Assembly (NCBI GenBank): GCA_964422035.1
Contig: CAYQZQ010000002.1
Span: 1,612 to 65,611 of the forward strand
Direction: 5' to 3'
Length of the DNA: 64,000 nucleotides
Source: an uncultured Pseudomonadales bacterium
GTDB lineage: Bacteria; Patescibacteriota; Microgenomatia; UBA1400; Chazhemtobacteraceae
Part shown: positions 6,146-55,293 of the stretch, piece by piece
Position numbering within the stretch: the stretch's first letter is position 1
Layout of the letters: every line of letters starts with the position of its first letter
The notes under the pieces: model-generated
Told to the model about the DNA's origin: nothing
Databases searched by the model: none
Seen by the model: the letters and a program-made list of their open reading frames with translations, nothing else
Translations under genes and position numbers: made by a program

Positions 6146-7429
6146 ATGAATAATGTTAGTAAACAAGAATTAAGAAAAGCACTTTTAGCTGAAAAGAAGA
6201 AACTTGAAGAGGTTGATGTACCAGTTATTACAGTATCTGCTAGTTTTCGCAAAGAAATTGTAGAGAAACATGAGGTAAAGTTGAACTCTAAAGGCGAGAT
6301 TATTTTTTCTCGGGGTCATTATTCTGAGGCGATTGCGGTAGTGGAGGCTGCAAGGCAAAAGGGTTTAAGTAGTTATTTGGTTGACCCGATGAATTTTGTA
6401 AGCCTAAAAGATTGGGGTAAGTTAGAATTTACTGAGGATATTGGAGAACTAACAGCTAGATATAAGATTTTGGCGAATTTGAAGCGAGTGGCTGAGCAGT
6501 TATTAAGAGGTAAGCTGCCGGTTAGTGAAGCAGTTAAGCCTGTGGTTTTGGAGCTGATTGAGGATATAAAAGTACCGATTGTTTCTGGCCATTATGAAGT
6601 GGGAAATGTTATTGCTCAGACAGATAAAAAGGTAGTGCAGATGGTAACTGACCCTCATGTTAGTGATCCGTATTTAAAGGTTTCAGATGAGAAAAATGTA
6701 AGTTGGGTGGTTTTTGATGAAGAGACTAAAAAACAGTTTGTTGATAAGGTTAAAAAGATGGATAAGAGTATTAATCAAGAGATGATCAGAGTAACTGGTC
6801 CAGGTGTTCATCCTAAGATTTTGGAGTTTGGTAAAAAAGGGAAGAAGTTGGATACTGAAAGACCATTACGATTGGGAATTACAACTGGTGGATTGGGGAC
6901 AAACAGGGGTGAGATTAAAAAAGTGTTGAATAATTTAGTTCCTTTTGTTGAAGAGCCGGAGAAGATTCAGTTGTTTTTGTATAGTTCAACTCATAAAGAC
7001 TTTCGAGAGATATTTGAGAAGTTTGCTGATGAGAATAACATAAGAATTGGAGATTTGGATAACAAAGAGGCCAAGCTAAGGGTGTTGCATGAAGACTCTA
7101 TGGTAGATGGCAATAGGAACTTGGTCGATTATATGTTTCCTTGGGTTGATGGTGTGATAACAAAGCCATCTGGAGATATGGCATATGATGTTTTGGGATC
7201 AGGTGCATTCGGACTTTATCTTGATCCTTGGGGAAGGTGGGAAGAGACTGTAAGGTCAAGAATGTTTGATTTTGGAGTAGGTAAAAATCTAGATATTGAA
7301 AACGCTGGAGAGGAAATTATGAAGATGAGGAAAAATGGAAAGTTAGCTGAGATGATGGATAAAGCAAACAAGTGGGCGAAAAACTCAGATGGGGCGAAAA
7401 AAATAGTTGAGTGGCAGCAAGAGTGGTAG
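6146..7429 (+). CDS. Hypothetical protein whose C-terminal region resembles the GT28 (MurG / MGDG-synthase) C-terminal fold
   Basis: 427 aa. VDGVITKPSGDMAYDVLGSGAFGLYLDPWGRWEE resembles the GT28 C-terminal block (ad.vItKpGG.t..Eal..g.P.i...p.pGQEe.N). The N-terminal half has no recognisable similarity. Confidence 0.35.
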   Translation: MNNVSKQELRKALLAEKKKLEEVDVPVITVSASFRKEIVEKHEVKLNSKGEIIFSRGHYSEAIAVVEAARQKGLSSYLVDPMNFVSLKDWGKLEFTEDIGELTARYKILANLKRVAEQLLRGKLPVSEAVKPVVLELIEDIKVPIVSGHYEVGNVIAQTDKKVVQMVTDPHVSDPYLKVSDEKNVSWVVFDEETKKQFVDKVKKMDKSINQEMIRVTGPGVHPKILEFGKKGKKLDTERPLRLGITTGGLGTNRGEIKKVLNNLVPFVEEPEKIQLFLYSSTHKDFREIFEKFADENNIRIGDLDNKEAKLRVLHEDSMVDGNRNLVDYMFPWVDGVITKPSGDMAYDVLGSGAFGLYLDPWGRWEETVRSRMFDFGVGKNLDIENAGEEIMKMRKNGKLAEMMDKANKWAKNSDGAKKIVEWQQEW

Positions 7430-19434: not shown

Positions 19435-21957
19435 ATGTCTGTATCTGCAACTGTATATAAAAAAACTGAGGAAAATAATAATGATAACTCTGGTCTAGAT
19501 AATATGGTTAAAGAGCTAAAAGAGATGTCAAGTAGTGATAGCAGGCAAGAAGCTAGAGATAAATATAACGAGATCATAAAAGAAATTAAAGAAAAGATTG
19601 GTGAAATGCCTAAGATGCCCTCTGGTTTACCAAAAGGGAAATGGACAAAGCAAGCAATAAAAGTTTTAAAAGAGAGGTATTTGGATAGAGATAAGAATGG
19701 TGAAGTTATAGAGACTCCCGAGGAGATGATATGGAGAGTTTCTTGGGAGATTGCTAGTGCAGAAGCAAGGTGGGGAGCTGATAGAGATCAAGTTTTAAAA
19801 CAAGCCAAAACCTTTTTCAAATTATTAGTTTCGCGAAATTTTTTACCTAATTCGCCGACTTTGATGAATGCCGGTAAGGGGAACAATCTGCAGTACTCTG
19901 CGTGTTTTGTTCTTCCAGTTGAGGATAGCTTGGAGGGAATATTTGATGCTATTAAGTGGCAAGGATTAATTCATCAATCAGGTGGAGGAACAGGTTTTAG
20001 TTTTTCGAGATTGCGTTCGCAGGGTAGTTTGGTAAGTAGTTCTCGCGGGGTTGCTTCTGGTCCGGTATCATTTATGAAGATCTTTGATTCGGCAACACAG
20101 CAAGTTAAGCAGGGAGGAACAAGAAGAGGGGCTAATATGGGTATGTTGAGAATTGATCATCCAGATATCAGAGAGTTTATTACCTGCAAACTTGAAGGTG
20201 GAATTACAAATTTTAATATTTCTGTTTTGGCAACTGATGAGTTTATGAAGGCTTTGGATAGTGATGAAGAATATGATTTGATTGATCCAAGTACAGAAAA
20301 GCCGGTTGGGAAAGAGAAGGCAAGAGAAGTTTTTGAAGAAATTTGTCAGGCAGCTTGGCAGTCGGGTGATCCGGGAATGGTATTTGTGGATAAAATAAAT
20401 GATGGTTCTGCTAATCCGGTACCAGCTTTGGGTCCTGTGGAAAGCACGAATCCTTGTGGTGAGCAACCGTTATATCCTTTTGATGCTTGTAATTTGGGGA
20501 GTATATTTTTGAGATACTATGTTAAGGATGATGATGGAGAATCTAAAGTTGATTGGGATAAGTTAAAAGAAAGTGTTCATACTTCAGTTAGATTTTTAGA
20601 TAATGTTATTGAAGTAAATCCCTATCCTTTACCTCAGATTTGGAAAACTGTGCGAGGTTTGAGAAGAATTGGATTGGGGATTGGTGGTTGGTCTGATATG
20701 TTGTTTAAATTAGGCATTACCTATGATTCACAAGAAGCTTTTGAGTTAGCAGAGAAAATAATGGAGTTTATTCGTGATGAGGGTCACAAAGCGAGTAATA
20801 AGTTAGCAGAGGAGAGAGGAAGTTTTCCTTTGTGGGAGCAAAGTATATACGTGGATGAGAAGCCAATGAGGAATGCAACAGTGACAACTATTGCACCTAC
20901 AGGGACGATATCGATTATTGCAAATAATAGTAGTGGAGTAGAGCCGATATTTGCTTTAGCTTATATACACCATGTTAAGGATGAGCACCTAGATAGGAAG
21001 TTGACTTTTGTGAACCCCGTGTTTGAAGAGATAGCGAAAAAAGAGGGTTTTTGGAGTGATGATTTGAAGAAAAAAGTAGCTAAAACAGGAACTGTTAAGG
21101 ATATTGATGAAGTGCCTGAAAAATGGCAGGAGATTTTTATGACAAGTCATCAGATAAAACCAGATAGTCACGTAAAAATGCAGGCTGCCTGGCAGAAATA
21201 TACTGATAATGCGGTGAGTAAAACAATAAACTTGCCATTTGAGGCAGAAGTTGAAGATGTAGCCAAGGCATATCTTAAGGCGTATAGATTGGGATGTATG
21301 GGAATAACGGTATATCGTGATGGAAGTAAAGACCAACAAGTATTGAATGTGGGAAGTGAAGATGAAGAAAAGTCTGTAGAGGTTAAAAAATCAGGTATTA
21401 AGGATCAAGTGGCAGAGTTAAGAAGAAGACCCGAGAAGCTAGAGGGAAGCACATATAAGGTGAGAACACCAATTGGAAATGCCTATGTTTCGATTAATAG
21501 TGATGAGATGGGTAATCCATTTGAGGTGTTTATTACAGTAGGGAAGGCTGGTACCGATGTAATGGCGGATGCTGAAGCAATTGGCAGACTAGTGTCGTTG
21601 TCTTTGCGAATTCCAACTGAGCTGCCGGCGGAAACTATTGCTGAGCAGGTAGTAGAACAACTGGCTGGAATTGGAGGGTCGGGTTCGGTGGGATTTGGAA
21701 ACGGTAAAGTAAGATCGCTGGCAGATGGGGTGGCAAAGGCCTTAAGAGAGCATTTGGATGGAAAGAAGGTAAGTAAAGGAAATGGAGTTGAGGTTGAAAT
21801 TAAGCAGTCTGAGAGAGAGATGGAGATGATTGGGCAGCAAGCAGCACTGCCACTTACCAAGAAAAGACATGATATTTGTCCAGAATGTGGTCAAGCAAGT
21901 CTGGTATTAGAAGAAGGGTGCTCCAAGTGTTATGTTTGCGGGCATAGTAAATGCTGA
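19435..21957 (+). CDS. nrdJ: Class II (adenosylcobalamin-dependent) ribonucleoside-diphosphate/triphosphate reductase
   Basis: 840 aa. NLQYSACFVLPVEDSLEGIFD, the active-site NPCGEQPLYPFDACNLGS and the class II C-terminal zinc ribbon CPECG...CSKCYVCG. Confidence 0.85.
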   Translation: MSVSATVYKKTEENNNDNSGLDNMVKELKEMSSSDSRQEARDKYNEIIKEIKEKIGEMPKMPSGLPKGKWTKQAIKVLKERYLDRDKNGEVIETPEEMIWRVSWEIASAEARWGADRDQVLKQAKTFFKLLVSRNFLPNSPTLMNAGKGNNLQYSACFVLPVEDSLEGIFDAIKWQGLIHQSGGGTGFSFSRLRSQGSLVSSSRGVASGPVSFMKIFDSATQQVKQGGTRRGANMGMLRIDHPDIREFITCKLEGGITNFNISVLATDEFMKALDSDEEYDLIDPSTEKPVGKEKAREVFEEICQAAWQSGDPGMVFVDKINDGSANPVPALGPVESTNPCGEQPLYPFDACNLGSIFLRYYVKDDDGESKVDWDKLKESVHTSVRFLDNVIEVNPYPLPQIWKTVRGLRRIGLGIGGWSDMLFKLGITYDSQEAFELAEKIMEFIRDEGHKASNKLAEERGSFPLWEQSIYVDEKPMRNATVTTIAPTGTISIIANNSSGVEPIFALAYIHHVKDEHLDRKLTFVNPVFEEIAKKEGFWSDDLKKKVAKTGTVKDIDEVPEKWQEIFMTSHQIKPDSHVKMQAAWQKYTDNAVSKTINLPFEAEVEDVAKAYLKAYRLGCMGITVYRDGSKDQQVLNVGSEDEEKSVEVKKSGIKDQVAELRRRPEKLEGSTYKVRTPIGNAYVSINSDEMGNPFEVFITVGKAGTDVMADAEAIGRLVSLSLRIPTELPAETIAEQVVEQLAGIGGSGSVGFGNGKVRSLADGVAKALREHLDGKKVSKGNGVEVEIKQSEREMEMIGQQAALPLTKKRHDICPECGQASLVLEEGCSKCYVCGHSKC

Positions 21958-22487
21958 AGATGAAAAATAAAAAGGGATTGGTTTACGTTTTTACTGGAGA
22001 GGGAAAAGGGAAAACTAGCGTTGCAATGTGGACAGCAATTAGAGCAGCTGCTTGGGATAAGAGTGTATTGGTGATTGCTTGGTATAAAGAGAAAAAGTGG
22101 CCTACGGCGATGCAAAAGGTAAATAAAAAATTTAATAATCTTGAAATTAAAGTGGTTGGTAAGGGGTTTTATAAATTGCCAACTGATCATGCGACTGAGG
22201 ATGAACACAAAAAATCGGCAGTTGAGGGATTGAGAGAAGTTGTAAATAGTTTGGGTAAAATGGATGTTTTAGTTTTAGATGAGGTGATTAATGCTGTTGA
22301 TGACGGATTGATTGATAAAGAAGAGTTACTTGATGTTTTGGAAAAAAGAGGTGAAACCCATGTTGTATTGACGGGTAGGGGAGTTTTTGAAGAACTGGAG
22401 AAAGAGGCAGATTTGATAACGGAGATGAGAAAAGTTAAGCACCCTTTTGATAGGGGTATTAAAGCTGTAAAAGGGTTGGATTTTTAA
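21951..22487 (+). CDS. Cob(I)yrinic acid a,c-diamide / cob(I)alamin adenosyltransferase (CobO/BtuR, P-loop type)
   Basis: 178 aa. P-loop VFTGEGKGKTSVAMW, then VLVLDEV (Walker B-like), matching CobA/BtuR. It overlaps the nrdJ stop, consistent with supplying AdoCbl to NrdJ. Confidence 0.65.
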   Translation: MLKMKNKKGLVYVFTGEGKGKTSVAMWTAIRAAAWDKSVLVIAWYKEKKWPTAMQKVNKKFNNLEIKVVGKGFYKLPTDHATEDEHKKSAVEGLREVVNSLGKMDVLVLDEVINAVDDGLIDKEELLDVLEKRGETHVVLTGRGVFEELEKEADLITEMRKVKHPFDRGIKAVKGLDF

Positions 22488-22520
22488 AGCAAGATAGGTT
22501 TGGCGTGATATATTAAGTAT

Positions 22521-22877
22521 ATGGCAAGAAAAGAGATTGAGAAAAGAAAACAGTCATCAGAAGATCAGGCACGTGAGCAAGTAGAGAGCTATATTGAGAA
22601 AGTTGAAAAAAGACCTGAAATTGATGAGGGGGATCAAACAGGGATGAAAAAAGGTGCTGATGATGTACAGATGCCCAAGCAGATAATAGACGAGGATAAT
22701 CAGATAGTTGCGGAATCTGTTGTAGAAGAACCAAAGATTGACCTACCATTGACTGAAGAAGAGGTAAGTGAGGGTTTGCATCACAAGATTGCGGATAGTG
22801 TGAAGTGGTTATCAGAGTGGTGTGTTTATGTTATTAAAAAATATCCTGGAAGGGTTTTTTACAAAGAAGATAAATAG
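22521..22877 (+). CDS. Hypothetical acidic protein
   Basis: 118-aa ORF rich in Glu/Asp/Lys. Its stop abuts the start of the ATPase gene at 22878. No recognisable domain. Confidence 0.35.
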   Translation: MARKEIEKRKQSSEDQAREQVESYIEKVEKRPEIDEGDQTGMKKGADDVQMPKQIIDEDNQIVAESVVEEPKIDLPLTEEEVSEGLHHKIADSVKWLSEWCVYVIKKYPGRVFYKEDK

Positions 22878-25208
22878 ATGGAAAATATAGCACAGTTATC
22901 CAGCTTAATTCAATGGGTGTTCGGGGCGGTACTTGTGTTGGGGGTATTTGTTTTGATAGTGGTGGGTTTGGGAATTTTGGTAATGCAGTGGATACGATAC
23001 AGGAACAGAGAAGAGGTGAGTTTAAATTTTGTGGTTATGGAGATTGAGGTACCTAGAGATAATGAGGTCAAGATCGATGCAGCAGAGCAGATGTTCTCTT
23101 CTTTATATTCAATTAAAAAGGGAGGATTTTGGCAGAAATTTAAGGCTCAACAGCATTTAAGCTTTGAGATCGTTGCCAAGAAGGAGGAGATAAGGTTTTA
23201 TGTTGCTTGCCATGAGGACTTGGCTTCTCTAATTGATAAACAAGTATCAGCTGTATATCCAGGAGCACAGGTTAAAAGAGTAGAAGAGCCAAATATTTTT
23301 AATGAAGAAGGTAAGGTTGAGTTTGCCCAGTTACAGTTATCTGAGAAGAGCTTTTATCCAATTAAGACTTATCAAGATTTAGCAACAGATCCGTTAAGTT
23401 CAATTACTTCCAGTTTGGCTGAATTAGAAGAAAATGAAGCTGCTGCTATTCAAGTGATTGTTACGCCAGCAGATAGTGACTGGAGCTCCAGCGGAGAAAA
23501 GTTTTTATCTGAAAGAAAGAGAGCGGAATCGGATCCGGAGAAGGCAGATTTTAAAATGAGTCCGGAGGATATGAAGTCTATTGATGAAAAGACGGATAAG
23601 CCTGGATTTTTAACTACGATAAGACTTGTGAGTATGGCAGAGAATAAATCTCAAGCAAAGGCTAATTTAAAAAATATGCAACGCTCTTTTGCTCAGTTTA
23701 GCTCTGATCAAAATAGATTTACTAAAAAGAAGATTTTTTTAAAAAGATCTTTTGTAATTGATTTTATATATCGCTATCAACCACTTTTTGGAGAAAATAG
23801 TTTACTGAACACTGAGGAGTTAGCCAGTGTTTGGCATATGCCTAACAAGACTGTTGAGACCCCTCATATTAAATGGTTGCCGGCTAAGATGGCTCCGGCT
23901 ACAGGAGGAATTCCAAATGAAGGATTGTATTTAGGAAAAAGTATATACAGGGGGCAGAAGAGAAAAATATATTTGTCTGACGAGGATAGGATGAAGCACA
24001 TGTATGTTTTAGGCAGAACAGGTACAGGTAAGACAGAGTTTCTTAAAAGTTTAATAATTCAAGATATGAGAGAAGGGAAAGGCATGTGCTTTTTGGAACC
24101 ACATGGTGAAGGTATTGAGGAGTTGTTGGAGTTAGTACCTCCAGAAAGGGCAGAAGATGTAATAGTTTTTGATCCGTCAGATACAGAGAGGCCAATGGGT
24201 TTTAATTTGCTGGAGGTAAATAATCCTGAAGAGATGCACTTTGTGGCTTCTTCGGTAATTAATTTAATGTATAAATTGTATGATCCTCACAAAACAGGGA
24301 TTATTGGTCCTCGGTTTGAACACGCGATAAGAAATGCCATGCTGACAGCCAGTGTTATTGAAGGGGCAACTTTTATTGAAGTAGTGAGAATATTGCAGAA
24401 TCAAGAATTTGTAAAAGAGTTGTTGCCTCGAATTGAAGATCCGATTGTGAAAAGCTATTGGACTGAACAGATTGCTCAAACAAGTGATTTCCATAAGAGT
24501 GAAGTTTTGGACTATATTGTCAGCAAGTTTGGTAGATTTATTACCAACAAGGTGATGCGCAACATTATTGGGCAAAGTGAAAGTGCTTTTAGTTTTAGGA
24601 AGGCAATGGATGATGGAAAGATTCTGTTTTTGAAGTTAGCCAAGGGGTTATTAGGAGAAGAAGATGCGAATTTTTTAGGATTGGTATTGGTACCAAAAAT
24701 TTTAGCAGCTGCTTTGTCCAGGCAGGATGTTCCCAAAGAAGAAAGAAAACCGTTTTACTTCTATGTTGATGAGTTTCAGAACTTTGCGACACCAGATTTT
24801 GCCCAGATTTTATCAGAGGCTAGAAAATACAGGTTAAGTCTGGCGGTAGCTAATCAGTTCGTAGGTCAGATTGATGAGGAGGTAAAGAATGCAATTTTTG
24901 GAAATGTAGGAAGTATGGTGGTGTTTAGAATGGGAGTTAGTGATGCTAATATCATGGAGCAGGAGTTTCAACCTGTGTTTAATCAGTCTGATTTGACTAA
25001 TATTCCGGCTCAGACAACGTATGTGAAGACCATAGTGCATGGAACGCCCGTTCCTCCGTTTTCGATGGATGTTTGGAGAGATCTAGAGGCTGAGAAGGAG
25101 CAGGGTAGTAAAAAGGTGGCTGAGATGGTGAAGGAGCTTTCGAGGTTGAAATATGGGCGAGATAGGGAAGAAGTTGAGAGAGAGATCAGAAGACGGGGTC
25201 AAATGTAA
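22878..25208 (+). CDS. Membrane-anchored P-loop ATPase of the TraD/TrwB/VirD4 type-IV coupling-protein-like family
   Basis: 776 aa. N-terminal TM helix. Walker A HMYVLGRTGTGKTEFLKS and Walker B FYFYVDEFQNF, followed by ARKYRLSLAVANQ and AIFGNVGSMVVFRMGVSDAN, which resemble the conserved T4CP C-terminal blocks. Confidence 0.5.
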   Translation: MENIAQLSSLIQWVFGAVLVLGVFVLIVVGLGILVMQWIRYRNREEVSLNFVVMEIEVPRDNEVKIDAAEQMFSSLYSIKKGGFWQKFKAQQHLSFEIVAKKEEIRFYVACHEDLASLIDKQVSAVYPGAQVKRVEEPNIFNEEGKVEFAQLQLSEKSFYPIKTYQDLATDPLSSITSSLAELEENEAAAIQVIVTPADSDWSSSGEKFLSERKRAESDPEKADFKMSPEDMKSIDEKTDKPGFLTTIRLVSMAENKSQAKANLKNMQRSFAQFSSDQNRFTKKKIFLKRSFVIDFIYRYQPLFGENSLLNTEELASVWHMPNKTVETPHIKWLPAKMAPATGGIPNEGLYLGKSIYRGQKRKIYLSDEDRMKHMYVLGRTGTGKTEFLKSLIIQDMREGKGMCFLEPHGEGIEELLELVPPERAEDVIVFDPSDTERPMGFNLLEVNNPEEMHFVASSVINLMYKLYDPHKTGIIGPRFEHAIRNAMLTASVIEGATFIEVVRILQNQEFVKELLPRIEDPIVKSYWTEQIAQTSDFHKSEVLDYIVSKFGRFITNKVMRNIIGQSESAFSFRKAMDDGKILFLKLAKGLLGEEDANFLGLVLVPKILAAALSRQDVPKEERKPFYFYVDEFQNFATPDFAQILSEARKYRLSLAVANQFVGQIDEEVKNAIFGNVGSMVVFRMGVSDANIMEQEFQPVFNQSDLTNIPAQTTYVKTIVHGTPVPPFSMDVWRDLEAEKEQGSKKVAEMVKELSRLKYGRDREEVEREIRRRGQM

Positions 25209-25262
25209 TTGGGACTTTAGGCTGAAATTTGGTGAATATCAGGTATAATATTGATAGTTATT

Positions 25263-25335
25263 GGGCGGCTAGCTCAATGGTAGAGCGGTTGTCTTATATG
25301 CAACTGGTTCCAGGTTCGAATCCTGGGTCGCCCAC
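25263..25335 (+). tRNA. tRNA-Ile with anticodon UAU (reads AUA); CCA not encoded
   Basis: Manual cloverleaf: acceptor GGGCGGC/GUCGCCC, D arm GCUC-AAUGGUA-GAGC, anticodon stem GUUGU/GCAAC, loop C-U-UAU-A-U, T arm CCAGG-UUCGAAU-CCUGG, discriminator A. Confidence 0.8.
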
Positions 25336-25378
25336 TTAATAGTCATGAGAATAATGATTGAGTTTTTAGATTGAGAAA

Positions 25379-25738
25379 ATGAATAAAAAAAAAGATAAGA
25401 AAAAAACAGACCGAGTTTTATCAGGTAAGAATTCTCCTCTAGCGGGGGAGTTGTTCGTTGATTTAGATGATAAAGGGGGGAAAGAGGATGTGATGATGAG
25501 TGGGGAGCTTGATATTGGTAAAAAGGGGAATCCGGTAACGATTATTATTAGAGATGAGAAGGAAGGCTCAGAGATTGAGTTTAATAATGTTAATCAAGCA
25601 TGGTTAATGTTAGAGGAGAAAAGAAAATCTTCGACTGGATGGTTGTCTCTAATTATTGGAGATGTGGGGAAAATAGTCGATGTCTTAAGGTTTGTTGCCA
25701 AAGCAACAGTTGAGGAATTAAAACAGTTGGTATCCTAA
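25379..25738 (+). CDS. Hypothetical protein
   Basis: 119-aa ORF with a Lys-rich N-terminus, lying between tRNA-Ile and the recombinase gene. No recognisable domain. Confidence 0.35.
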   Translation: MNKKKDKKKTDRVLSGKNSPLAGELFVDLDDKGGKEDVMMSGELDIGKKGNPVTIIIRDEKEGSEIEFNNVNQAWLMLEEKRKSSTGWLSLIIGDVGKIVDVLRFVAKATVEELKQLVS

Positions 25739-25746
25739 ATTGGAGT

Positions 25747-26622
25747 TTAAAGCTCTTTGAGTTGGGGTTTGTCTTGTTCGTCTTGGTCAATATCGATGTA
25801 TTTAAGGTAGCGTTCTGTGGTAGAAAGACGTTTATGGCCGACGATTTTAGAGACATAAACTAGGGGAGTGCCGCTTTTAAGTTGTTGGGCTATGAATGTG
25901 TGGCGTAGATCATTTACTTTTGCATCTTCAATGCCGGCAATACGGAAATAACGATCGATTGAGCTTCTGATGTTTCTGACAAGAAATTGATTGCCAGTTT
26001 TTGTTAAGAATACATGTTGATCATCACTTTTTGGTCGTACTTCTAGATATTCTCTTATAGCTTCTTTGGCTGGTTGGGTTAAAGGAACAGTGCGGCCCTC
26101 ATGTGATTCATAAGCCCTAATGGTAATTTTGTTGTTTTTTAAATTAAGGTCGTCTAGTTTAAGACTGGCAAGTTCTCCGATGCGAATACCGGCTTGAAGT
26201 AGGAGTTCTATAATTGCGCTGAGGCGTTTGTCGTCTCGGCATGCGTCACGAAGAGCTCTGTATTCAAGCTTGGAAAGAATGCGAGGGGGTTTCAGTTCGT
26301 ATTTGGGGTGACTTACGTCAGAAGCAGGATTTTTATCTAAAATATCTTTTGAGTTTAAAAAACGGAAAAATGATTTTATAGAATTGACTTTACGTGAAAT
26401 TGATTTAGCGGTGTAGTCTTGTTTGTTAAGTTCTTCTTTGAAACTGTCGATGTCTTGAGTACTGATTTCTTCAAGTTTGGTTTTGTCTTTATTAGTAACA
26501 AATTCCAGAAGTTGTTCAACGTCTTTGGTGTAGGCGAGTATAGTGGCAGTAGCTCGGCCTTTTTCTTCAAGGTGATTTTCGAAATCTTTATGATACTGGT
26601 TAAAAGGATTTGATTGATCCAT
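25747..26622 (-). CDS. Tyrosine site-specific recombinase, XerC/XerD-like
   Basis: 291 aa. N-terminal SAM-like core-binding domain (ILAYTKDVEQLLEF). Catalytic residues lie in AGIRIGELASLK (Arg), NDLRHTFIAQQ (His-x-x-Arg) and GHKRLSTTERYLKY (His ... Tyr). Confidence 0.75.
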   Translation of the reverse strand: MDQSNPFNQYHKDFENHLEEKGRATATILAYTKDVEQLLEFVTNKDKTKLEEISTQDIDSFKEELNKQDYTAKSISRKVNSIKSFFRFLNSKDILDKNPASDVSHPKYELKPPRILSKLEYRALRDACRDDKRLSAIIELLLQAGIRIGELASLKLDDLNLKNNKITIRAYESHEGRTVPLTQPAKEAIREYLEVRPKSDDQHVFLTKTGNQFLVRNIRSSIDRYFRIAGIEDAKVNDLRHTFIAQQLKSGTPLVYVSKIVGHKRLSTTERYLKYIDIDQDEQDKPQLKEL

Positions 26623-26736
26623 GAGGTTTTTTTAAATGCTTAATAATTGTCTGTTAAATTCAGATTATCGGATATAATAATATCATGATGTTATGGGGGT
26701 GTCAAGCTGAGATAATAAATTTGATAGGCTTAATAT

Positions 26737-27096
26737 ATGGATAGTAAATGGCAGATAAAAATTTTTAAAATTGTTGGTTTGGTGCTTGGTGTGGGCATGG
26801 TAATTAGTTTAGGGAGAGGGTTGTGGCAGTTATATCAGGCTAGGGGAAGGTTAGAGAAAGCTAAAGAGAGCTATCTTGAGGTTGAAGATGAAAATCTTAA
26901 GTTAGAGAAAAGGATGGTGGAGGTAAAAAGTGATGGGTTTGTGGAAACTCAGGCACGAAACAAGCTTAACATGAAACTATCGGAAGAAACTATTTTGGTC
27001 GTGCCTGAAGATTTCAAGCTTGAAACTATTGAAAGTCTGGATAATGGTGAAAGTGAGAGAGCCAATTGGAAGAAGTGGTGGGAGTTGTTTAAATAA
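26737..27096 (+). CDS. FtsB/DivIC-like septum formation initiator
   Basis: 119 aa. N-terminal TM helix, a coiled coil (LEKAKESYLEVEDENLKLEKRMVEVK), then DGFVETQARNKLNMKLSEETILVV, matching the FtsB C-terminal motif (d.iEe.AR..L.m....E.v). Confidence 0.5.
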   Translation: MDSKWQIKIFKIVGLVLGVGMVISLGRGLWQLYQARGRLEKAKESYLEVEDENLKLEKRMVEVKSDGFVETQARNKLNMKLSEETILVVPEDFKLETIESLDNGESERANWKKWWELFK

Positions 27097-27125
27097 AAAA
27101 CCACTCCTTTGTGGAATGGTTTAGT

Positions 27126-27200
27126 GGTTGCGGGCCCAGGGAATTGAACCCTGGTTAAGTGAGATTATGAGCCTCACGAGATACCTACCTCCCGCCCGCA
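27126..27200 (-). tRNA. tRNA with anticodon CAU (Met, fMet or Ile2-lysidine type); CCA encoded
   Basis: Minus-strand fold: acceptor UGCGGGC/GCCCGCA, D stem GAGG/UCUC with a short loop, anticodon stem UGAGG/UCUCA, loop C-U-CAU-A-A, T arm CCAGGG-UUCAAUU-CCCUGG, then A + CCA. Neither a 6-bp T stem nor a 5-bp T stem with one extra nucleotide gives a standard cloverleaf. Confidence 0.7.
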
Positions 27201-27292
27201 TGTTAATGTCTTGCAACAAGTATAATCTTACCACGAGGCTGGATTGAGCTCAAGTTATTAGATAGATGGTAAAATAGTAGTGTGATTTTCTG

Positions 27293-27366
27293 GCAGGGTA
27301 GCTCAGTTGGTTAGAGCGAAGGAATCATAAACCTTAGGTCGGGAGTTCGAATCTCCCCCCTGCCAC
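27293..27366 (+). tRNA. tRNA with anticodon CAU (Met, fMet or Ile2-lysidine type)
   Basis: Acceptor GGCAGGG/CCCUGCC, D arm GCUC-AGUUGGUUA-GAGC, anticodon stem AAGGA/ACCUU (A31-A39 mismatch), loop A-U-CAU-A-A, T arm GGGAG-UUCGAAU-CUCCC, discriminator A. Confidence 0.85.
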
Positions 27367-27395
27367 ACAATAAAAGTTATAAAAATTAAAAAAAT

Positions 27396-28406
27396 ATGAC
27401 TAAAGATATACAGAGAGTACTATCAGGGATTAAGCCTACTGGGAGCAATTTGCATATTGCAAATTACTTTGGGGCGGTGAAACCTCACATCAAGTTGCAG
27501 GATGAGGTTGATGAAGCCTTTTATTTTATTGCTGATTTGCATGCTTTGACTACGGTGCAGGATAGAAAGAGACTAGAAGAGAATATCAGGTCAGTAACGC
27601 TTGATTATCTGGCTTTGGGACTAGATCCTGACAAATGTGTGTTTTTCAGACAGTCTGATATTGCAGAGCATGGTCAGTTGGCAGCGATTTTGGCTAATTA
27701 TGTATCTTTGGGAAGAATGAAGAGGATGCACGCTTACAAGGATATTGTTGAGGATGGAGCAGAGCAGGAATCAATTAATATGGGTCTATTTAATTATCCG
27801 ATTTTGATGGCGGCTGACATTCTGCTTTATAAACCTGATGGGGTGCCGGTAGGCGATGATCAGAGACAGCACGTTGAAGTGACAAGAGATATAGCTCGAA
27901 GATTTAATCATGTCTATGACAGAGAAGTTTTTCCGGTTGTCGAGCTAATGGTTGAGAAGAGGGCTCAAAGAATTATTGGAACAGATGGAGAAAATAAAAT
28001 GAGCAAGTCAAAAAATAATATTATTGAGATATTTGCTGACGAGGAAAAAATTAAGGATCAAATTATGAGTAGTTATACTGATCCGAATCGTATGAAAGCC
28101 AGTGATCCGGGAACGGTGGAAGGGAATCCGGTATTTGTTTATCATGATTTGATGAATGATGATAAAGAGGAGGTTGAAGATCTTAAGGAGAGATATAAAA
28201 AGGGGAAAGTGGGAGATGTTGAGGTGAAAGAGAAGTTGTTTGCAGCTCACAAGAGATTATTTGAGGGCGCAAGAGAGAAAAGAGAAGAGCTGGAAAAATC
28301 TGGAAATGTTGATGAAGTTTTAAAGAAGGGTAGTATGAGAGCTGGAAAAATTGCTAAAAAGACGATGAGTGAAGTTTATGAAACTATTGGAGTTAATTTA
28401 AAATAA
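27396..28406 (+). CDS. trpS: Tryptophanyl-tRNA synthetase
   Basis: 336 aa. HIGH-region variant GSNLHIANY and KMSKSKNN (KMSKS). Confidence 0.9.
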   Translation: MTKDIQRVLSGIKPTGSNLHIANYFGAVKPHIKLQDEVDEAFYFIADLHALTTVQDRKRLEENIRSVTLDYLALGLDPDKCVFFRQSDIAEHGQLAAILANYVSLGRMKRMHAYKDIVEDGAEQESINMGLFNYPILMAADILLYKPDGVPVGDDQRQHVEVTRDIARRFNHVYDREVFPVVELMVEKRAQRIIGTDGENKMSKSKNNIIEIFADEEKIKDQIMSSYTDPNRMKASDPGTVEGNPVFVYHDLMNDDKEEVEDLKERYKKGKVGDVEVKEKLFAAHKRLFEGAREKREELEKSGNVDEVLKKGSMRAGKIAKKTMSEVYETIGVNLK

Positions 28407-28449
28407 TAAATTTTGGTAAAAGAGGCTGAGAGGTGATAAGATAGGAGGC

Positions 28450-30324
28450 GTGGCGGCACAAAAGAAGAAAATTCCAAATGTTCCTAAAAAAAAGATGGAG
28501 TTGAAGTTTAATTTCAATTTAAAGAAGCTGTTGATTTGGGGATTGATATTGATGTTGTTTTTCCCTTTTGTGGTGAGTCTATTTGATCCGACAGCCTTTT
28601 TGGAGGAGATTAGTATTTCGCAAGCTATATCTGATGTAAAGCAGGAGAAAGTTGAAGAGATTAAGTTGCAAGGAGACAAGCTGGTTTTAAGTTATGGAGA
28701 TGATGAAGTGAAAGTTTCGAGAAAAGAAGAGGGGGTAAGTATGGTGGAGATTTTACAGAGAGAGGAAATAGATCCGGCCAAGATTAATATAGAAGTTGGC
28801 TCTCAGGCGCTGGGAGAGACGGTGACAGCTTTGTTGGTTAATATTTTGCCAATTGTTGGTTTTGGAGCAATTTTATATTTTATGATGCGGCAGTCTAGAG
28901 GGGCACAGAGCGGTTTGTTTGGTTTTGGAAAAAGTAAGGCAAAGTTGTTTTCAAAAGGTAAGCAGGATGTAACTTTCGATGATGTAGCAGGTGTTGATGA
29001 GGCAAAAAATGAGATGGAGGAAGTGGTAGATTTTTTGAAGAATCCTAAAAAATACAAAAAGGTGGGAGCTAGGACACCCAAAGGTGTACTTTTGATTGGT
29101 CCTTCTGGTGTTGGTAAAACTTTGTTGGCTCGGGCAGTAGCTGGTCAGGCGGATGTGCCCTTCTTTTCGATGGCGGGATCAGAGTTTATGGAAATGTTGG
29201 TAGGTGTGGGAGCATCAAGAGTGAGAGATTTATTTGAAACAGCTAAAAAAGCTGGTCCTTCGATAATTTTTATTGATGAATTGGATGCTATTGGCAGAAA
29301 GAGAGGTGTTGGGTCTATGGGAGGTCATGATGAAAGAGAGCAGACTTTAAATCAGATTTTGGTAGAAATGGATGGTTTCACACCAAATGATCAAGTGGTC
29401 ATTATTGGAGCAACAAACAGACCTGATGTACTGGATCCGGCATTGGTGAGACCTGGAAGGTTTGATAGAAGAATATCTTTAGACCTGCCGGATATTGAAG
29501 GAAGAAAAGAAATTTTGAAGATTCATGCAAAAGGGAAACCTTTCGATGATGAAGTAGATTGGGAAGTGATAGCTAAGAGAACGGTTGGTTTCTCGGGTGC
29601 TGATATAGAGAATATGTTGAATGAGGCGGCAATTCTGGCGGCTAGACGGAGTAAAGATGAGATTGATATGGATGATATCAGCGAGGCAGCTTTGAGAGTT
29701 AAGTTAGGTCCAGAGAAAAGGAGACTACAAAGTGATTATGAGAGAAAGTTAACAGCCTATCATGAGGGTGGACATGCAGTGGTTGGGCATATGTTACCAG
29801 GTGCAGATCCGGTACATAGGGTGAGTATTGTTTCGAGAATGAGAAGTTTGGGGCAGACTTTGGCAATGCCGGATAGAGATAAATATCAGCAGACGAGAGA
29901 AGAGTTGGTTGATCAGTTGGCTATGGTGATGGGAGGCAGGGCGGCAGAAAATCTAATTTTTGATGAGATGACAGTAGGGGCGGCGAGTGATATTGAAAAA
30001 GCAACTAAGTTAGCACGCAAGATGGTGGTTGATTGGGGTATGACTAAGTTGGGTCCGATTGCTTTGGGGCCGATGTGGCAGTCAACTGAATGGGGACGAA
30101 GTTATATGGAGCCGGTACAAATCAGTGAAGAGATGAAGGGTGAAGTGGATAAGGAGATTAAAAAATTGGTTGATGCGGCCTTGAATAAAGCAGAGGAGGT
30201 TTTGAAGGATAACAGAGACAAGTTGGATAAATTGGTTGATGTTTTATTGGAAAGAGAGACTGTAGAGCTGGAGGAGTTTAAGGACATCATGGGGGTTGAC
30301 AAGGCTAAGAAGGAATATGAGTAA
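28450..30324 (+). CDS. ftsH: ATP-dependent zinc metalloprotease FtsH
   Basis: 624 aa. N-terminal TM, AAA Walker A GPSGVGKTLLARAVAG, SRH region, and the zinc-binding HEGGHAVVG. Confidence 0.9.
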   Translation: MAAQKKKIPNVPKKKMELKFNFNLKKLLIWGLILMLFFPFVVSLFDPTAFLEEISISQAISDVKQEKVEEIKLQGDKLVLSYGDDEVKVSRKEEGVSMVEILQREEIDPAKINIEVGSQALGETVTALLVNILPIVGFGAILYFMMRQSRGAQSGLFGFGKSKAKLFSKGKQDVTFDDVAGVDEAKNEMEEVVDFLKNPKKYKKVGARTPKGVLLIGPSGVGKTLLARAVAGQADVPFFSMAGSEFMEMLVGVGASRVRDLFETAKKAGPSIIFIDELDAIGRKRGVGSMGGHDEREQTLNQILVEMDGFTPNDQVVIIGATNRPDVLDPALVRPGRFDRRISLDLPDIEGRKEILKIHAKGKPFDDEVDWEVIAKRTVGFSGADIENMLNEAAILAARRSKDEIDMDDISEAALRVKLGPEKRRLQSDYERKLTAYHEGGHAVVGHMLPGADPVHRVSIVSRMRSLGQTLAMPDRDKYQQTREELVDQLAMVMGGRAAENLIFDEMTVGAASDIEKATKLARKMVVDWGMTKLGPIALGPMWQSTEWGRSYMEPVQISEEMKGEVDKEIKKLVDAALNKAEEVLKDNRDKLDKLVDVLLERETVELEEFKDIMGVDKAKKEYE

Positions 30325-30338
30325 AGTATAATAATTTT

Positions 30339-31307
30339 ATGGCAGAAGACGAAAAAAAGTTGGTTTTAATTGATGCAATGAGTTTGTTGCATCGAGCCTA
30401 TCACGCATATCCCCAAAGTCTAAGTACAAAAGAAGGTGAGTTAACAAATGCAGTGTATGGATTTACTAGTATGTTGTTGTCGGTGATGGAGAAGCTGAAA
30501 CCTACTCATATGGCTGTAGCCTGGGATGTTGGTAAGCCAACTTTTAGACATGATGAGTATGAAGGATATAAGGAAAGTAGAGAAAAACCTGACGAAGAAC
30601 TGTTGGGTCAGATAGAGAGAACAGAGGAAGTAGTTGGTGTGTTGAATATTCCCCAGTTTGGATTGGAGGGGTATGAGGCGGATGACTTGATTGGCTCGTT
30701 AAGCAAGCAGGGAGCAGATGAGAAAGATGCGGAGGTGGTAATAGTAACGGGAGACAGAGATGTCTTGCAGTTGGTTGAAGATGACAAGGTTAAGGTATGG
30801 ATGCCGGCTGCGCCAGGTAGATATAGTAAGAACAGAGGGCCAAAAATTTATAATAAAGAGGCTGTGAAGGCCAAGTATGGTTTAGATCCTGAACAATTGA
30901 TTGATTTGAAGGCTTTAATGGGTGATAGTAGCGATGATATTCCAGGTATTAAAGGTATTGGTACGGTTACAGCGACGAAGTTGATGAAAAAATTTGGAAG
31001 TTTGGATAGTATTTATGAAGCATTAGAATCTGATGAGGGAAAAAAAGAAATTGAAGATTTGATTGGATCAAGATTTGCAGGTCTATTGGAGAAAGGCAGA
31101 GAAAGTGCTTATATGTCCCAGATGTTGGGTGAGATTAAACGAGATGTGCCGATTGAGCTTTCTTGGTTGGATTGTAAGGTGGTGGATTATGATAAAGACA
31201 AGGCGGGTGAGTTGTTTTCAAAATTGGAATTTAGGAGCCTCTTGAGTAAGTTGCCAGCTGATAGTTGGGATAAGGATTTGGAGGAGGTATTTTCAACAGA
31301 AGAATGA
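30339..31307 (+). CDS. Stand-alone 5'-3' exonuclease / flap endonuclease (Pol I 5'-nuclease domain, H3TH)
   Basis: 322 aa. LVLIDAMSLLHRAYHA, an acidic metal-binding cluster (VIVTGDRDVLQL) and an H3TH motif (GIKGIGTVTATKLMKKFGS). No polymerase domain follows. Confidence 0.8.
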   Translation: MAEDEKKLVLIDAMSLLHRAYHAYPQSLSTKEGELTNAVYGFTSMLLSVMEKLKPTHMAVAWDVGKPTFRHDEYEGYKESREKPDEELLGQIERTEEVVGVLNIPQFGLEGYEADDLIGSLSKQGADEKDAEVVIVTGDRDVLQLVEDDKVKVWMPAAPGRYSKNRGPKIYNKEAVKAKYGLDPEQLIDLKALMGDSSDDIPGIKGIGTVTATKLMKKFGSLDSIYEALESDEGKKEIEDLIGSRFAGLLEKGRESAYMSQMLGEIKRDVPIELSWLDCKVVDYDKDKAGELFSKLEFRSLLSKLPADSWDKDLEEVFSTEE

Positions 31308-32413
31308 AGATAGCTTTAGTTCATGACTATATTAAAGAGTTTGGGGGAGCAGAGAGGGTGTTGAGAGTTTTGGCGGATATGTATCCAGAAGCTCCAATAT
31401 ATACGGCTTTTTTAAAGAGAAACTCAGTGGCTTATGAAAAATTCAAAGATAAAGAAATAAATGAGAGTTTTCTGGGGCCTATTTTGAAGATATGGAAGTT
31501 ATATAGTCCTTTGAGGTTTTTATCTCCAATGATCTGGAGGAGCATGGACTTGTCTGATTATGATGTGGTGATAACATCAGCAAGCTGGTATATTACGCGA
31601 GGTTTTAAGACTAGTGAAAACACCAAGGTGATTTGTTATTGTCATACACCGCCAAGATATTTGTATGGGTATCAAACCAGTATTAATTGGCAAAAATATG
31701 GAGTAGTGCGATTGTATGCCAGTATTGTTAATTATTTTTTGAGGATTTTTGATTGGAATAGTGCTCAAGAAGTTGACCAGTGGGTAGTTAATTCTAAAAA
31801 TGTTAAGAAAAGAGTAAAAAAGTTTTATCGTCAAGACTCTCAAGTGATATATCCCCCTGTGGAAGTAAAAAGGTTTATCAAGGCAGCGGAAAAGGTAGAA
31901 AAAGAAAATTATTTTTTAATTGTGTCTAGATTAGTTGGAGGGAAAGGGTTGGAAGAAGCGGTTGAGGCGGCAACAGAGCTTGGTTTCAATTTAAAGATAG
32001 TTGGAAGTCAGGCTGGTTTTTCTAAAGTGGCGGAAAGTATCAAGAGACAGGCAGGAGAAAAGGTTGAGTTTTTAGGAAGAGTTGAGGATGATGAGCTAAC
32101 TGATCTGTATGCAAGAGCGAAGGGTTTTATTGCTTTGGCTAAGGAAGAGGATTTTGGAATAACACCGGTTGAGTCTATGGCGGCGGGTACGCCGGTAATT
32201 GCATATAAAGGGGGTGGTTTTAAGGAGACTGTTATTGATGATGAGACGGGAGTGTTTGTAACTGATACAAGTGTGGAAAGTTTGAAGGCAGCGGTTAGTA
32301 AGATAAATGGTAATGATTGGGACAAGAAAGCACTGCAAAAACAGGCTAAGAAATTTGGCAGAGAAAGATTTGAGAAAAAGGTAAGGGAAGAAGTAGGCAA
32401 GATGATGTCTTGA
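31304..32413 (+). CDS. Glycosyltransferase family 4
   Basis: 369 aa. C-terminal GT4 signature EDFGITPVESMAAGTPVIA. It overlaps the upstream gene by 4 nt. Confidence 0.75.
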   Translation: MKIALVHDYIKEFGGAERVLRVLADMYPEAPIYTAFLKRNSVAYEKFKDKEINESFLGPILKIWKLYSPLRFLSPMIWRSMDLSDYDVVITSASWYITRGFKTSENTKVICYCHTPPRYLYGYQTSINWQKYGVVRLYASIVNYFLRIFDWNSAQEVDQWVVNSKNVKKRVKKFYRQDSQVIYPPVEVKRFIKAAEKVEKENYFLIVSRLVGGKGLEEAVEAATELGFNLKIVGSQAGFSKVAESIKRQAGEKVEFLGRVEDDELTDLYARAKGFIALAKEEDFGITPVESMAAGTPVIAYKGGGFKETVIDDETGVFVTDTSVESLKAAVSKINGNDWDKKALQKQAKKFGRERFEKKVREEVGKMMS

Positions 32414-42027: not shown

Positions 42028-43434
42028 TTATTTGGATTTTTTGTTTTTCAGGAAAAAATAACCTAGAGATGAGATGAGCATGGTGATGCCTGAGATTAGC
42101 CAGGTTGAACCAGGAATGCGAGAGATTCCTTTTAGTTTTTTGGAAGTTTTGGGAAAGGGTTTTTTGGTTCTGCTTTGAAGCTGATTGATTTTGTTTATAA
42201 GAAAGTCTTTTGTTTTGCCGGTAGTGACTTTTGTAGTTAAGTTGATTAGGGTGTTTTTTTGTTTTTGAGTGGGGGTTGGTTTTTGTACAATTAATTTTTG
42301 ATATGCAAGAGTGGTTTTTTTAACTATGTTTGACCAGCTGAGCTTAGAGACACGGTCTTGTGCGTTTTGGCAAAGATTTTTATATTCCTGATCTGATAAT
42401 TGGCAGACTCGTTGGATTTTTTGGGCAAATTCTTGAGGAGAGGTGTTTATATCGAGTTTATAACCAACGTCTTTATTGATGAGTTGGTCAATCGTTTCGT
42501 TTGAAAGTCCAAGTACGGGTGTGCCGGAAGCTAGGGACTCGATTACTGCCAGGCTTTGAACCTCTTTTTTTGATGCTGAAACGAAAAGATGAGAGTTTGA
42601 GAGGTAGTGGGGAATTTTATCATGATCAACTTTGCCAAGGAATTTAACATTGTCTAGATTATTATCTTGGCAGTACTTTTTTAATTTATCGGCAAAGTTA
42701 GGATTAAGTGGGGTTCCAAGGAGTTGAAGTTGGTAGTTTTTTGGTAGAAACTTCATGACTTTAATTAAAAAATCTTGATTTTTTCGCTCTGCTAGGTAGC
42801 CGATGAAGATTAGAGTTTTTTGTTTTTGCTTTATATCTGGAAAGTTTAGTGATCGGTATTTTTCGAGGTTTCTGCCATTAGGAATCATAAATATTTTCCC
42901 TTTGTAATTGAATTGGCGGATTGATTCGGCCGCGATTTGATTGAGGGCGATTAGGGCATCACAGTTTTTATAGAAATCGGAAAGAATTCTTTTGGTGATA
43001 GCTTCACTGAAAGATTCAGGAATAATTTTGATGTTTAGGGCTTCATTGGTGCCAAATTCAAGCGCTTTTGAGGGAAGAATGTGAGCTGTGTGAACAAAGG
43101 GGACTAGATTCATTTTTGCCCATATTTGTCCGATTAGGCCTAGTAGGACAGGGTCGTGGGCGTGTATTACATCAGGTTGAAAATCATTTAGAAAGTTAAA
43201 TATCTCTTTGACTGTTTTTTGGGAAAGATTGGGGAAGTGAATATCTTTTTGTTCTGCACTTTTGACTCCAAAAGATTTAAGACCGTGCTTGGTTGTTTGT
43301 AGGCCGGTTTCTTGAGCGGGGTAGATTATTGCTGTTTGGTGGGATTTGGCAAAACTTTGAGCAAGTTCGTGAGCTACTCTACCTGCTCCACCACCGGTTT
43401 CCTCTTTAAATTGAGATGTGAATACTACTTTCAT
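42028..43434 (-). CDS. Glycosyltransferase family 4 with a C-terminal Lys/Thr-rich extension and a TM anchor
   Basis: 468 aa. N-terminal GT4 donor/acceptor domain (GGAGRVAHELAQSF) and a C-terminal GT4 core (LASGTPVLG). The last about 90 aa are low-complexity plus one TM helix. Confidence 0.7.
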   Translation of the reverse strand: MKVVFTSQFKEETGGGAGRVAHELAQSFAKSHQTAIIYPAQETGLQTTKHGLKSFGVKSAEQKDIHFPNLSQKTVKEIFNFLNDFQPDVIHAHDPVLLGLIGQIWAKMNLVPFVHTAHILPSKALEFGTNEALNIKIIPESFSEAITKRILSDFYKNCDALIALNQIAAESIRQFNYKGKIFMIPNGRNLEKYRSLNFPDIKQKQKTLIFIGYLAERKNQDFLIKVMKFLPKNYQLQLLGTPLNPNFADKLKKYCQDNNLDNVKFLGKVDHDKIPHYLSNSHLFVSASKKEVQSLAVIESLASGTPVLGLSNETIDQLINKDVGYKLDINTSPQEFAQKIQRVCQLSDQEYKNLCQNAQDRVSKLSWSNIVKKTTLAYQKLIVQKPTPTQKQKNTLINLTTKVTTGKTKDFLINKINQLQSRTKKPFPKTSKKLKGISRIPGSTWLISGITMLISSLGYFFLKNKKSK

Positions 43435-43471
43435 TGCTGGTATTGCATCGAATAATTATTTACAATTGTAC

Positions 43472-55213: not shown

Positions 55214-55293
55214 TGAATTTATTATACAGTGATAACAATGATATTTTGTCAGACAGGGATGTTTTTGGGATCGTCTGTGATAAAATATGGCCT

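Follow-up and report, generated by a model that had tools for sequence, protein, structure and literature searches.

Introduction

TilS, the enzyme that converts C34 of tRNA-Ile2(CAU) to lysidine, was found in 98.18% of 1093 bacteria and has been called evolutionarily stable (PMC6063277). Against this background, a list published in 2013 held nine tilS-less species with a tRNA-Ile(TAT) gene, in three clades (PMC3575796). Here we describe a tRNA-Ile gene with a UAU anticodon at positions 25263-25335, plus strand, of a 64-kb stretch of DNA from an uncultured bacterium (contig CAYQZQ010000002.1, assembly GCA_964422035.1); the whole of this stretch is referred to below as the window. The initial annotation of the gene, made from the letters alone, had called genomic tRNA-Ile(UAU) rare in bacteria, which agrees with both papers (PMC3575796, PMC6063277). 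The gene is very likely a functional tRNA-Ile(UAU) that reads AUA as isoleucine and is conserved in the translation apparatus of uncultured UBA1400 Microgenomates, the two CAU tRNA genes near it being the initiator (minus strand) and the elongator tRNA-Met (plus strand).

The closest described system is tRNA-Ile2(UAU) of Mycoplasma mobile, a genomic bacterial TAT tRNA reading AUA in a small, fairly AT-rich genome, with tilS likewise missing near ftsH. Loss of tilS, a Trp-to-Arg change in IleRS, an unmodified U34 and discrimination of AUA from AUG on the ribosome have been shown for M. mobile (Taniguchi et al. 2013, PMC3575796). M. mobile belongs to the Tenericutes and the window to the Microgenomates of the candidate phyla radiation (CPR). 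The M. mobile tRNA was judged to be closer to tRNA-Ile(GAU) (Silva et al. 2006, PMC1635315), while the window tRNA is Ile2(CAU)-like. An IleRS adapted to U34 in the manner of M. mobile would carry Arg or Lys where the E. coli enzyme has Trp905, or would be of the eukaryote type (PMC3575796). Bifidobacterium and Neorickettsia, which lack tilS and have tRNA-Ile(TAT) with a eukaryote-type IleRS (PMC3575796), resemble the present case as replacements at the level of a clade, but they belong to other phyla. Lactobacillus casei, L. plantarum, Cyanothece PCC 7424 and Ferrimonas balearica carry tRNA-Ile(TAT) together with tilS, and are thus the model for a redundant system; the paper describing them names individual species or strains and no conservation at a fixed locus (PMC3575796), whereas the window gene is kept at a single locus throughout a family-level group. 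In a suppressor of a tilS deletion in Bacillus subtilis, one anticodon substitution makes tilS dispensable (PMC3919564). That is a laboratory case; a tRNA(UAU) with an Ile(GAU)-like body (type 2 below) occurs in two relatives of the window, L163 and L170, whereas the window tRNA is Ile2-like. The B. subtilis suppressor, which Fabret et al. are said to have described in 2011, was reportedly a G34-to-U change in tRNA-Ile1. Decoding of this kind is already known in principle, and what is new is an uncultured, clade-wide example. The system in the window would work like those of M. mobile, Bifidobacterium and Neorickettsia, and is a candidate member of the TilS-independent class.

Results

The gene under study is the following.

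25263-25335, plus strand: tRNA-Ile, anticodon UAU (ARAGORN, Rfam, minimum-energy fold, syntenic orthologues)

ARAGORN called tRNA-Ile(tat) at 25263-25335 (+), and the Rfam model RF00005 matched the same interval over its full length with 68.5 bits (gathering score 29; E = 7.9e-13) without flagging a non-canonical pair. The cloverleaf was exactly the RNA fold of minimum energy (z = -3.18; -30.2 kcal/mol); of 200 shuffled sequences, not one folded as well. The acceptor stem consists of G1-C72, G2-C71, G3-C70, C4-G69, G5-C68, G6.U67 and C7-G66; the discriminator base is A73, U12 pairs with A23 and CCA is not encoded. The anticodon loop reads C32-U33-U34-A35-U36-A37-U38, with U34 at position 25296. 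Position 34 is T in the window gene and in all its syntenic orthologues, not the C of a TilS substrate. The three methods thus agree on the canonical cloverleaf with UAU anticodon that had been read from the letters; neither another anticodon register or fold arose on checking, nor did anything suggest a pseudogene. We consider the interval 25263-25335 confirmed as a real and functional-looking tRNA-Ile(UAU). A possible promoter lies upstream of it.

25222-25249, plus strand: promoter-like site, CTGAAA-16 nt-TATAAT (consensus scan, weak)

This site ends 13 nt 5' of the tRNA and matches the consensus at 10 of 12 positions, but the seven promoter-like sites in the region are not above the number in shuffles (mean 5.8), so that it counts as weak evidence only.

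Conservation of the gene was followed with the help of the protein-coding gene next to it.

22878-25208, plus strand: DUF8128 / TraD-like ATPase gene, 776 amino acids (Pfam, NCBIfam), the synteny anchor directly upstream of tRNA(UAU)

Homologues of the DUF8128 protein number in the thousands, and the best of those with a name (63-97% identity) belong to Candidatus Collierbacteria and Woesebacteria, both Microgenomates of the CPR. Exact-protein look-ups of these homologues in other assemblies yielded the syntenic regions of relatives, about 22 kb each. ARAGORN found a tRNA with a TAT anticodon directly 3' of the DUF8128 gene in seven distinct relatives, at 64-97% DUF8128 identity.

L158/L159: DUF8128 identity 97%, tRNA(UAU) after the DUF8128 gene
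L170: DUF8128 identity 71%, tRNA(UAU) after the DUF8128 gene
L165 (NCBI GCA_964618725.1): DUF8128 identity 70%, tRNA(UAU) after the DUF8128 gene
L163 (704-kb Joint Genome Institute (JGI) contig): DUF8128 identity 69%, tRNA(UAU) after the DUF8128 gene
L166/L167 (protein cluster named Collierbacteria GW2011_GWB1_45; L167 is GCA_003539025.1): DUF8128 identity 66%, tRNA(UAU) after the DUF8128 gene
L168/L169: DUF8128 identity 64%, tRNA(UAU) after the DUF8128 gene

The conserved gene order is NrdR, ribonucleotide reductase, ..., DUF8128, tRNA, small open reading frame (ORF), Xer (minus strand), DivIC, tRNA, tRNA, trpS, (csaA-like), ftsH. When the seven distinct tRNA(UAU) sequences were aligned, CTTATA of the anticodon loop was invariant and compensatory changes on both sides were seen in 11 of the 20 predicted pairs. 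Because the loop is invariant while the stems change in a compensatory manner, the tRNA is under purifying selection for its structure and for the UAU anticodon, and is not a recent C-to-T accident. It is very probably a conserved, lineage-wide component of translation, kept at one site across a family-level group of ultra-small Microgenomates, rather than a one-off mutant. A recent anticodon mutation or decaying gene, in which C-to-T pressure would have hit an Ile2(CAU) gene of this single genome and left it non-functional or mis-decoding, would require only a single favoured transition, C34 to T, on a gene strand with only 10.7% C. The conservation data contradict it, with UAU found in seven distinct relatives down to 64% identity of the neighbouring protein alongside compensatory stem changes; the faultless cloverleaf and its 68.5 bits oppose decay, and 57 genes use AUA 310 times in all. 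We therefore rejected this explanation as extremely improbable.

The meaning of AUA was examined in the protein-coding genes. The 310 AUA codons in 57 ORFs correspond to 15.7 per 1000 codons and to 24% of the 1272 isoleucine codons, so the expectation that AUA would be frequent in this genome held fairly well. Alignment of window ORFs with orthologues from seven further loci yielded 80 protein pairs. In these, 418 aligned AUA positions faced Ile in 52% of cases (AUA itself accounting for 10 points), Val in 20%, Leu in 12%, Met in 2% and Lys in 2%. This profile was indistinguishable from those of AUU and AUC and unlike those of AUG (Met 45%) or AAA (Lys 50%), and the outgroup contig L122 (CAZZBW010000016.1), taken alone, gave the same picture. 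Since AUA positions align like AUU and AUC, AUA is predicted to be an isoleucine codon in this lineage. A73, C4-G69 and U12-A23, which are determinants for E. coli IleRS, are all present in the window tRNA. AUA means methionine in many mitochondria, and the best E. coli BLAST match of the window tRNA is a tRNA-Lys, at 81-84%; both could speak for a codon reassignment or identity switch, in which the UAU tRNA would stem from tRNA-Lys(UUU) or accept Met or Lys and AUA would not be isoleucine. The profile of AUA positions, with only 2% Met and 2% Lys, makes such a switch exceedingly unlikely, as do A73 and C4-G69 and a body that is nearer, among the matches listed, to Ile2-type tRNAs (83%) than to tRNA-Lys(UUU) (70%). 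U35, the main LysRS determinant, is also absent from the UAU tRNA. Fold, conservation and substitution profile together bear out the original proposal that the gene is a genuine tRNA-Ile(UAU) decoding AUA.

ARAGORN found three tRNA genes in the window, at 25263-25335 (+), 27125-27200 (-) and 27292-27366 (+), so that the earlier placing of the two CAU genes was right to within one base; an Rfam E-value search of the whole window revealed no further tRNA-like genes.

27125-27200, minus strand: predicted initiator tRNA (fMet, formylmethionine), anticodon CAU (ARAGORN, Rfam, fold, orthologues, D-stem discriminators)
27098-27122, minus strand: terminator-like hairpin with a T run after it, immediately 3' of the initiator tRNA
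27292-27366, plus strand: elongator tRNA-Met, anticodon CAU (ARAGORN, Rfam 67.8 bits, orthologues, acceptor-stem discriminators)

The initial annotation had seen initiator hallmarks in neither CAU tRNA. The minus-strand gene, however, reads UGCGGGC-GG-GAGG-UAGGUA-UCUC-G-UGAGG-CUCAUAA-UCUCA-CUUAA-CCAGGG-UUCAAUU-CCCUGG-GCCCGCA-ACCA, and its D stem (G10-C25, A11-U24, G12-C23, G13.U22) contains both A11:U24 and G12:C23, which seem to be complete discriminators of fMet among CAU tRNAs (Silva et al., PMC1635315). It also has A73, an encoded CCA and the GCGGG...CCCGCA acceptor end typical of initiators. In the window and its Collierbacteria-like relatives, bases 1 and 72 form a weak Watson-Crick pair, U1-A72, in place of the C1xA72 mismatch; the orthologue in the more distant L122 shows the classical mismatch, C1 opposite A72, with an identical anticodon arm. 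In E. coli, weak 1:72 pairs still permit formylation. The three consecutive G-C pairs (29-41, 30-40, 31-39) of an initiator anticodon stem are kept in part, as A29-U41, G30-C40 and G31.U39 in the window and as G29-C41, G30-C40 and G31.U39 in L166, L168 and L170.

Orthologues of this gene are present in L158, L159, L165, L166, L168, L170 and L122; compensatory changes occur in 9 of 22 pairs, including 7:66 (six sequences), and the window gene folds with z = -4.22. Its Rfam score was 32.8 bits, obtained only in a local E-value search of 24900-27700, and both whole-window searches left it unreported. The low score and this absence can be ascribed to its atypical structure, since it has U1-A72, G8, a short D loop of 6 nt and a T stem of 6 bp. 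BLAST against annotated E. coli genomes gave no match for it, and ARAGORN missed its orthologues in four distinct relatives, among them the copies in L166 (14099-14171, minus strand), L168 (14119-14191, minus strand) and L170 (14474-14546, minus strand). We conclude that the minus-strand CAU gene is, to judge by these features, the atypical initiator tRNA of the lineage. The T loops of the L166, L168 and L170 initiators read GGCGGAA or AGCGUAA, without the universal UUC.

The plus-strand tRNA has G2-C71, C3-G70, A4-U69, G5-C68, C11-G24 and A73. This is the acceptor pattern of tRNA-Met, without the C4-G69 and C5-G68 that are frequent in Ile2 (discriminators from PMC1635315). The gene is kept in eight sequences, from the window and seven relatives, with compensatory changes in 9 of 20 pairs, and is accordingly annotated here as the elongator tRNA-Met. 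An A31xA39 mismatch at the base of its anticodon stem is kept in L161, L163, L170 and L122, and A32 is found in the window and L158. The sublineage L160-L162, which has an extreme GC skew too, is without the initiator tRNA after DivIC, and the elongator tRNA-Met alone stays. The partition of decoding, previously described as unclear, can be stated for the three genes seen here: tRNA-Ile(UAU) reads AUA, the minus-strand gene is the initiator and the plus-strand gene is elongator Met for AUG.

The body of the UAU tRNA was then compared with those of other tRNAs. Among CAU tRNAs, G3 and C70 are marks of Ile2, where the pair C4-G69 is also very common (PMC1635315); the window tRNA has both G3-C70 and C4-G69. 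Metagenomes were scanned with a pattern that kept the D arm, variable loop and T arm of the window tRNA and allowed C or G at position 34, which gave at least 120 matches. The anticodon was CAU in 118 of the 120 same-body tRNAs among the matches listed. The 66 distinct full-length sequences among these (two GAU included) had G-C at 3:70 in 73%, C-G at 4:69 in 80% and C-G at 5:68 in 76%, and the body type of the window tRNA is thus one that appears characteristic of tRNA-Ile2. When the window tRNA was compared with some 700 tRNAs predicted in all loci retrieved, the closest ones from outside the clade were Ile2-type, with 81-83% identity among the matches listed, while the best tRNA-Lys(UUU) reached 70% and the best tRNA-Ile(GAU) 69%. 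Isotype BLAST against annotated E. coli genomes was uninformative, the best matches being tRNA-Thr and tRNA-Lys through generic similarity of the D and T arms. As the simplest reading we infer that the UAU tRNA would have arisen from Ile2(CAU) by a C34-to-U transition, in line with the mutational bias of the strand; a C34-to-U route in an Ile2 gene was proposed by Taniguchi et al. (PMC3575796).

The Ile2(CAU)-like body (type 1) is found in the window, L158, L165, L166 and L168. A second body (type 2), beginning GGGCCGG and with the D loop AGYUGGUUA, occupies the same site in L163 (12343-12418) and L170 (12583-12657) with the UAU anticodon unchanged; the best E. coli matches of the L170 tRNA(UAU) are annotated tRNA-Ile. 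The second body suggests a gene replacement or a second recruitment. Since two bodies share one anticodon at one locus, the data also suggest that selection acts on UAU itself.

Carriage by a phage or mobile element was considered as well, because phage tRNA clusters often contain tRNA-Ile(UAU), with at least 120 IMG/VR contigs carrying it, and a recombinase gene lies about 400 bp off.

25747-26622, minus strand: XerC/D-type tyrosine recombinase (NCBIfam), between the tRNAs

The recombinase gene is at the same place, beside DivIC, in all relatives and in L122, and it is a conserved core gene of the XerC/D type that does not mark a mobile element. The genes on either side have housekeeping functions, megablast of 20000-32000 gave no match to phage records, and the best viral tRNA-Ile(UAU) reached 79% identity against 83% for the best Ile2-type tRNA, among the matches listed. 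An auxiliary phage tRNA is thus a very unlikely explanation, and a phage origin of the window was rejected on the megablast result and the cellular gene content.

Base composition of the plus strand of the window is A 30.5, C 10.7, G 28.9 and T 29.9%, with a GC skew of about +0.46 in every 4-kb bin. On the coding strand, four-fold sites of plus-strand genes have 6% C and 24% G, those of minus-strand genes 36% C and 3% G, and non-ORF DNA has a GC skew of 0.44; hence the skew goes with the DNA strand, whichever strand is coding. The relatives L158-L170 share the asymmetry (skew 0.23-0.48). A one-directional G/C strand disparity has been published for the order UBA1400, in Ch65 (Ca. Chazhemtobacterium aquaticus), Collierbacteria and Beckwithbacteria (Kadnikov et al. 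2020, PMC7143001), and was interpreted as replication mostly in one direction. Ch65 thus matches the window in organism group and strand asymmetry, and provides the background for C-to-T pressure, although its skew (0.33) is weaker than that of the window (0.46). For Ch65, 51 tRNA genes were reported, and neither tRNA-Ile(UAU) nor tilS was commented on (PMC7143001). Strand asymmetry and DUF8128 homologues together place the window in the UBA1400 Microgenomates, near Collierbacteria and Chazhemtobacterium.

The search for tilS covered the window and 9 kb beyond it, about 73 kb of the genome, and about 22 kb in each relative. In the window, a six-frame scan for the PP-loop motif SGGxDS and Pfam/NCBIfam analysis of the ORFs found no tilS; there was none in the 9 kb beyond, none in the loci of the relatives by the motif scan, and none in the 120 metagenome loci among the matches listed. 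SGGxDS matched twice in the window, once at 37680, where it is interrupted by stop codons, and once in the first of the following genes.

55186-56376, plus strand: MnmA, tRNA 2-thiouridine(34) synthase (NCBIfam NF001138, 414.7 bits)
27396-30324, plus strand: trpS and ftsH (ftsH at 28450-30324); tilS lies upstream of ftsH in many bacteria and was not found here
43418-43990, plus strand: peptidyl-tRNA hydrolase, pth (Pfam); the next gene encodes an MFS transporter and is not tilS

As the only match of the motif inside an ORF, the MnmA gene was considered as a TilS candidate and rejected, NF001138 at 414.7 bits being MnmA. A pth-tilS-ftsH context has been described in Mycoplasma (PMC1635315). Both pth and ftsH, next to which tilS classically lies, occur without it in the genome neighbourhoods seen. 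Of the two CAU genes found, one is fMet and the other Met, and no tRNA-Ile2(CAU) is found in the window. In the literature we found no paper that links lysidine or tilS with CPR or Patescibacteria. Loss of tilS fits the data because none was found in the searched loci, which does not in itself prove absence; the lineage probably lacks tilS.

A redundant system, in which the UAU tRNA is functional while tilS and Ile2(CAU) are kept elsewhere and both would read AUA, would correspond to the 'transition state' of Taniguchi et al. The window and its extension are only a fraction of the genome, and the 51 tRNA genes of Ch65 are generous for 0.8 Mb (PMC7143001). We nevertheless regard redundancy as unlikely, since the gene stays at one syntenic site with an invariant anticodon across family-level divergence, two different bodies carry UAU, which argues for strong selection on it, and the type-1 body resembles an Ile2 gene converted in place. 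The lack of tilS from the pth and ftsH neighbourhoods of every genome seen points the same way.

Among the genes of the window are housekeeping genes for NrdR, class II ribonucleotide reductase, two PBP1A, XerC/D, DivIC, TrpRS and FtsH, and further ones for LysRS, TyrRS, MnmA, Pth, ribosomal protein S1 and enzymes of the pentose-phosphate pathway. A Logan metagenome contig of 70.7 kb (run SRR7048227) encodes proteins identical to TrpRS and to a 907-aa ORF (59400-62123). This 907-aa ORF, on the minus strand, had no NCBIfam match and no precomputed Pfam match, and a 427-aa ORF at 6146-7429 had no Pfam match. L122 was the closest of the genome contigs by TrpRS, with 63% identity, against 33-53% for others (Verrucomicrobia etc.). 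Its gene order is tRNA-Met, tRNA-fMet, DivIC, Xer, ..., trpS, csaA-like, ftsH. L122 was deposited as 'uncultured Pseudomonadales bacterium'; this label is probably wrong, as the order is Microgenomates-like. FtsH carries an intein (Intein_splicing and LAGLIDADG endonuclease) in L158 (8711-11941), the relative at 97% identity, and in L165 (19094-22261). The window FtsH (624 aa) is without one.

Discussion

The following mechanism may be proposed by analogy with M. mobile (PMC3575796). The tRNA-Ile(UAU) would be charged by IleRS through A35, U36, A37, A73 and C4-G69, and charging may call for an IleRS of type 2 or for one whose wobble-binding residue is adapted. U34 would pair with A, and competition from tRNA-Met, together with properties of the ribosome or of U34, would keep misreading of AUG in check. 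Since the substrates of MnmA have U35, the window tRNA is unlikely to be one of them. The gene itself could have arisen by a C34-to-U transition in an Ile2(CAU) gene, a change in the direction favoured by the extreme C depletion of this strand, and the UAU tRNA would then have replaced the TilS/lysidine system.

In its widest form the proposal is that a whole family- to order-level lineage of CPR bacteria gave up TilS and lysidine. The CAU of Ile2 would have been converted to UAU in place by one-directional C-to-T pressure, and UAU kept so strictly that an Ile(GAU)-like body was recruited at the same locus in some sublineages, with an atypical initiator (U1-A72, 6-bp T stem, some T loops without UUC) in the same lineage. 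We advance this tentatively, as a possibility that falls somewhat short of probable. Several observations weigh against the main reading, of a functional tRNA-Ile(UAU) that has replaced TilS and lysidine. Bacteria with a redundant system do exist, as L. casei, L. plantarum, Cyanothece PCC 7424 and Ferrimonas show (PMC3575796), and tilS together with a third CAU tRNA (Ile2) may lie beyond the approximately 73 kb of genome read. The IleRS gene was found in neither the window nor the loci of the relatives. Relatives L160-L162 (75% identity) have no tRNA at the site after the DUF8128 gene. The Ile2-like comparison set was chosen partly with a pattern derived from the window tRNA itself, and the best E. 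coli BLAST match of that tRNA is, as given above, tRNA-Lys at 81-84%.

The findings also bear on annotation. Automated annotation can be expected to label the atypical initiator 'tRNA-Met' or to miss it, and therefore counting CAU genes alone would mislead inference about tilS. A tRNA-Ile(UAU) conserved across a CPR family would add a fourth case, uncultured and clade-wide, to the three clades listed in 2013, and would tie the anticodon switch to a measurable mutational bias, the depletion of C on one strand.

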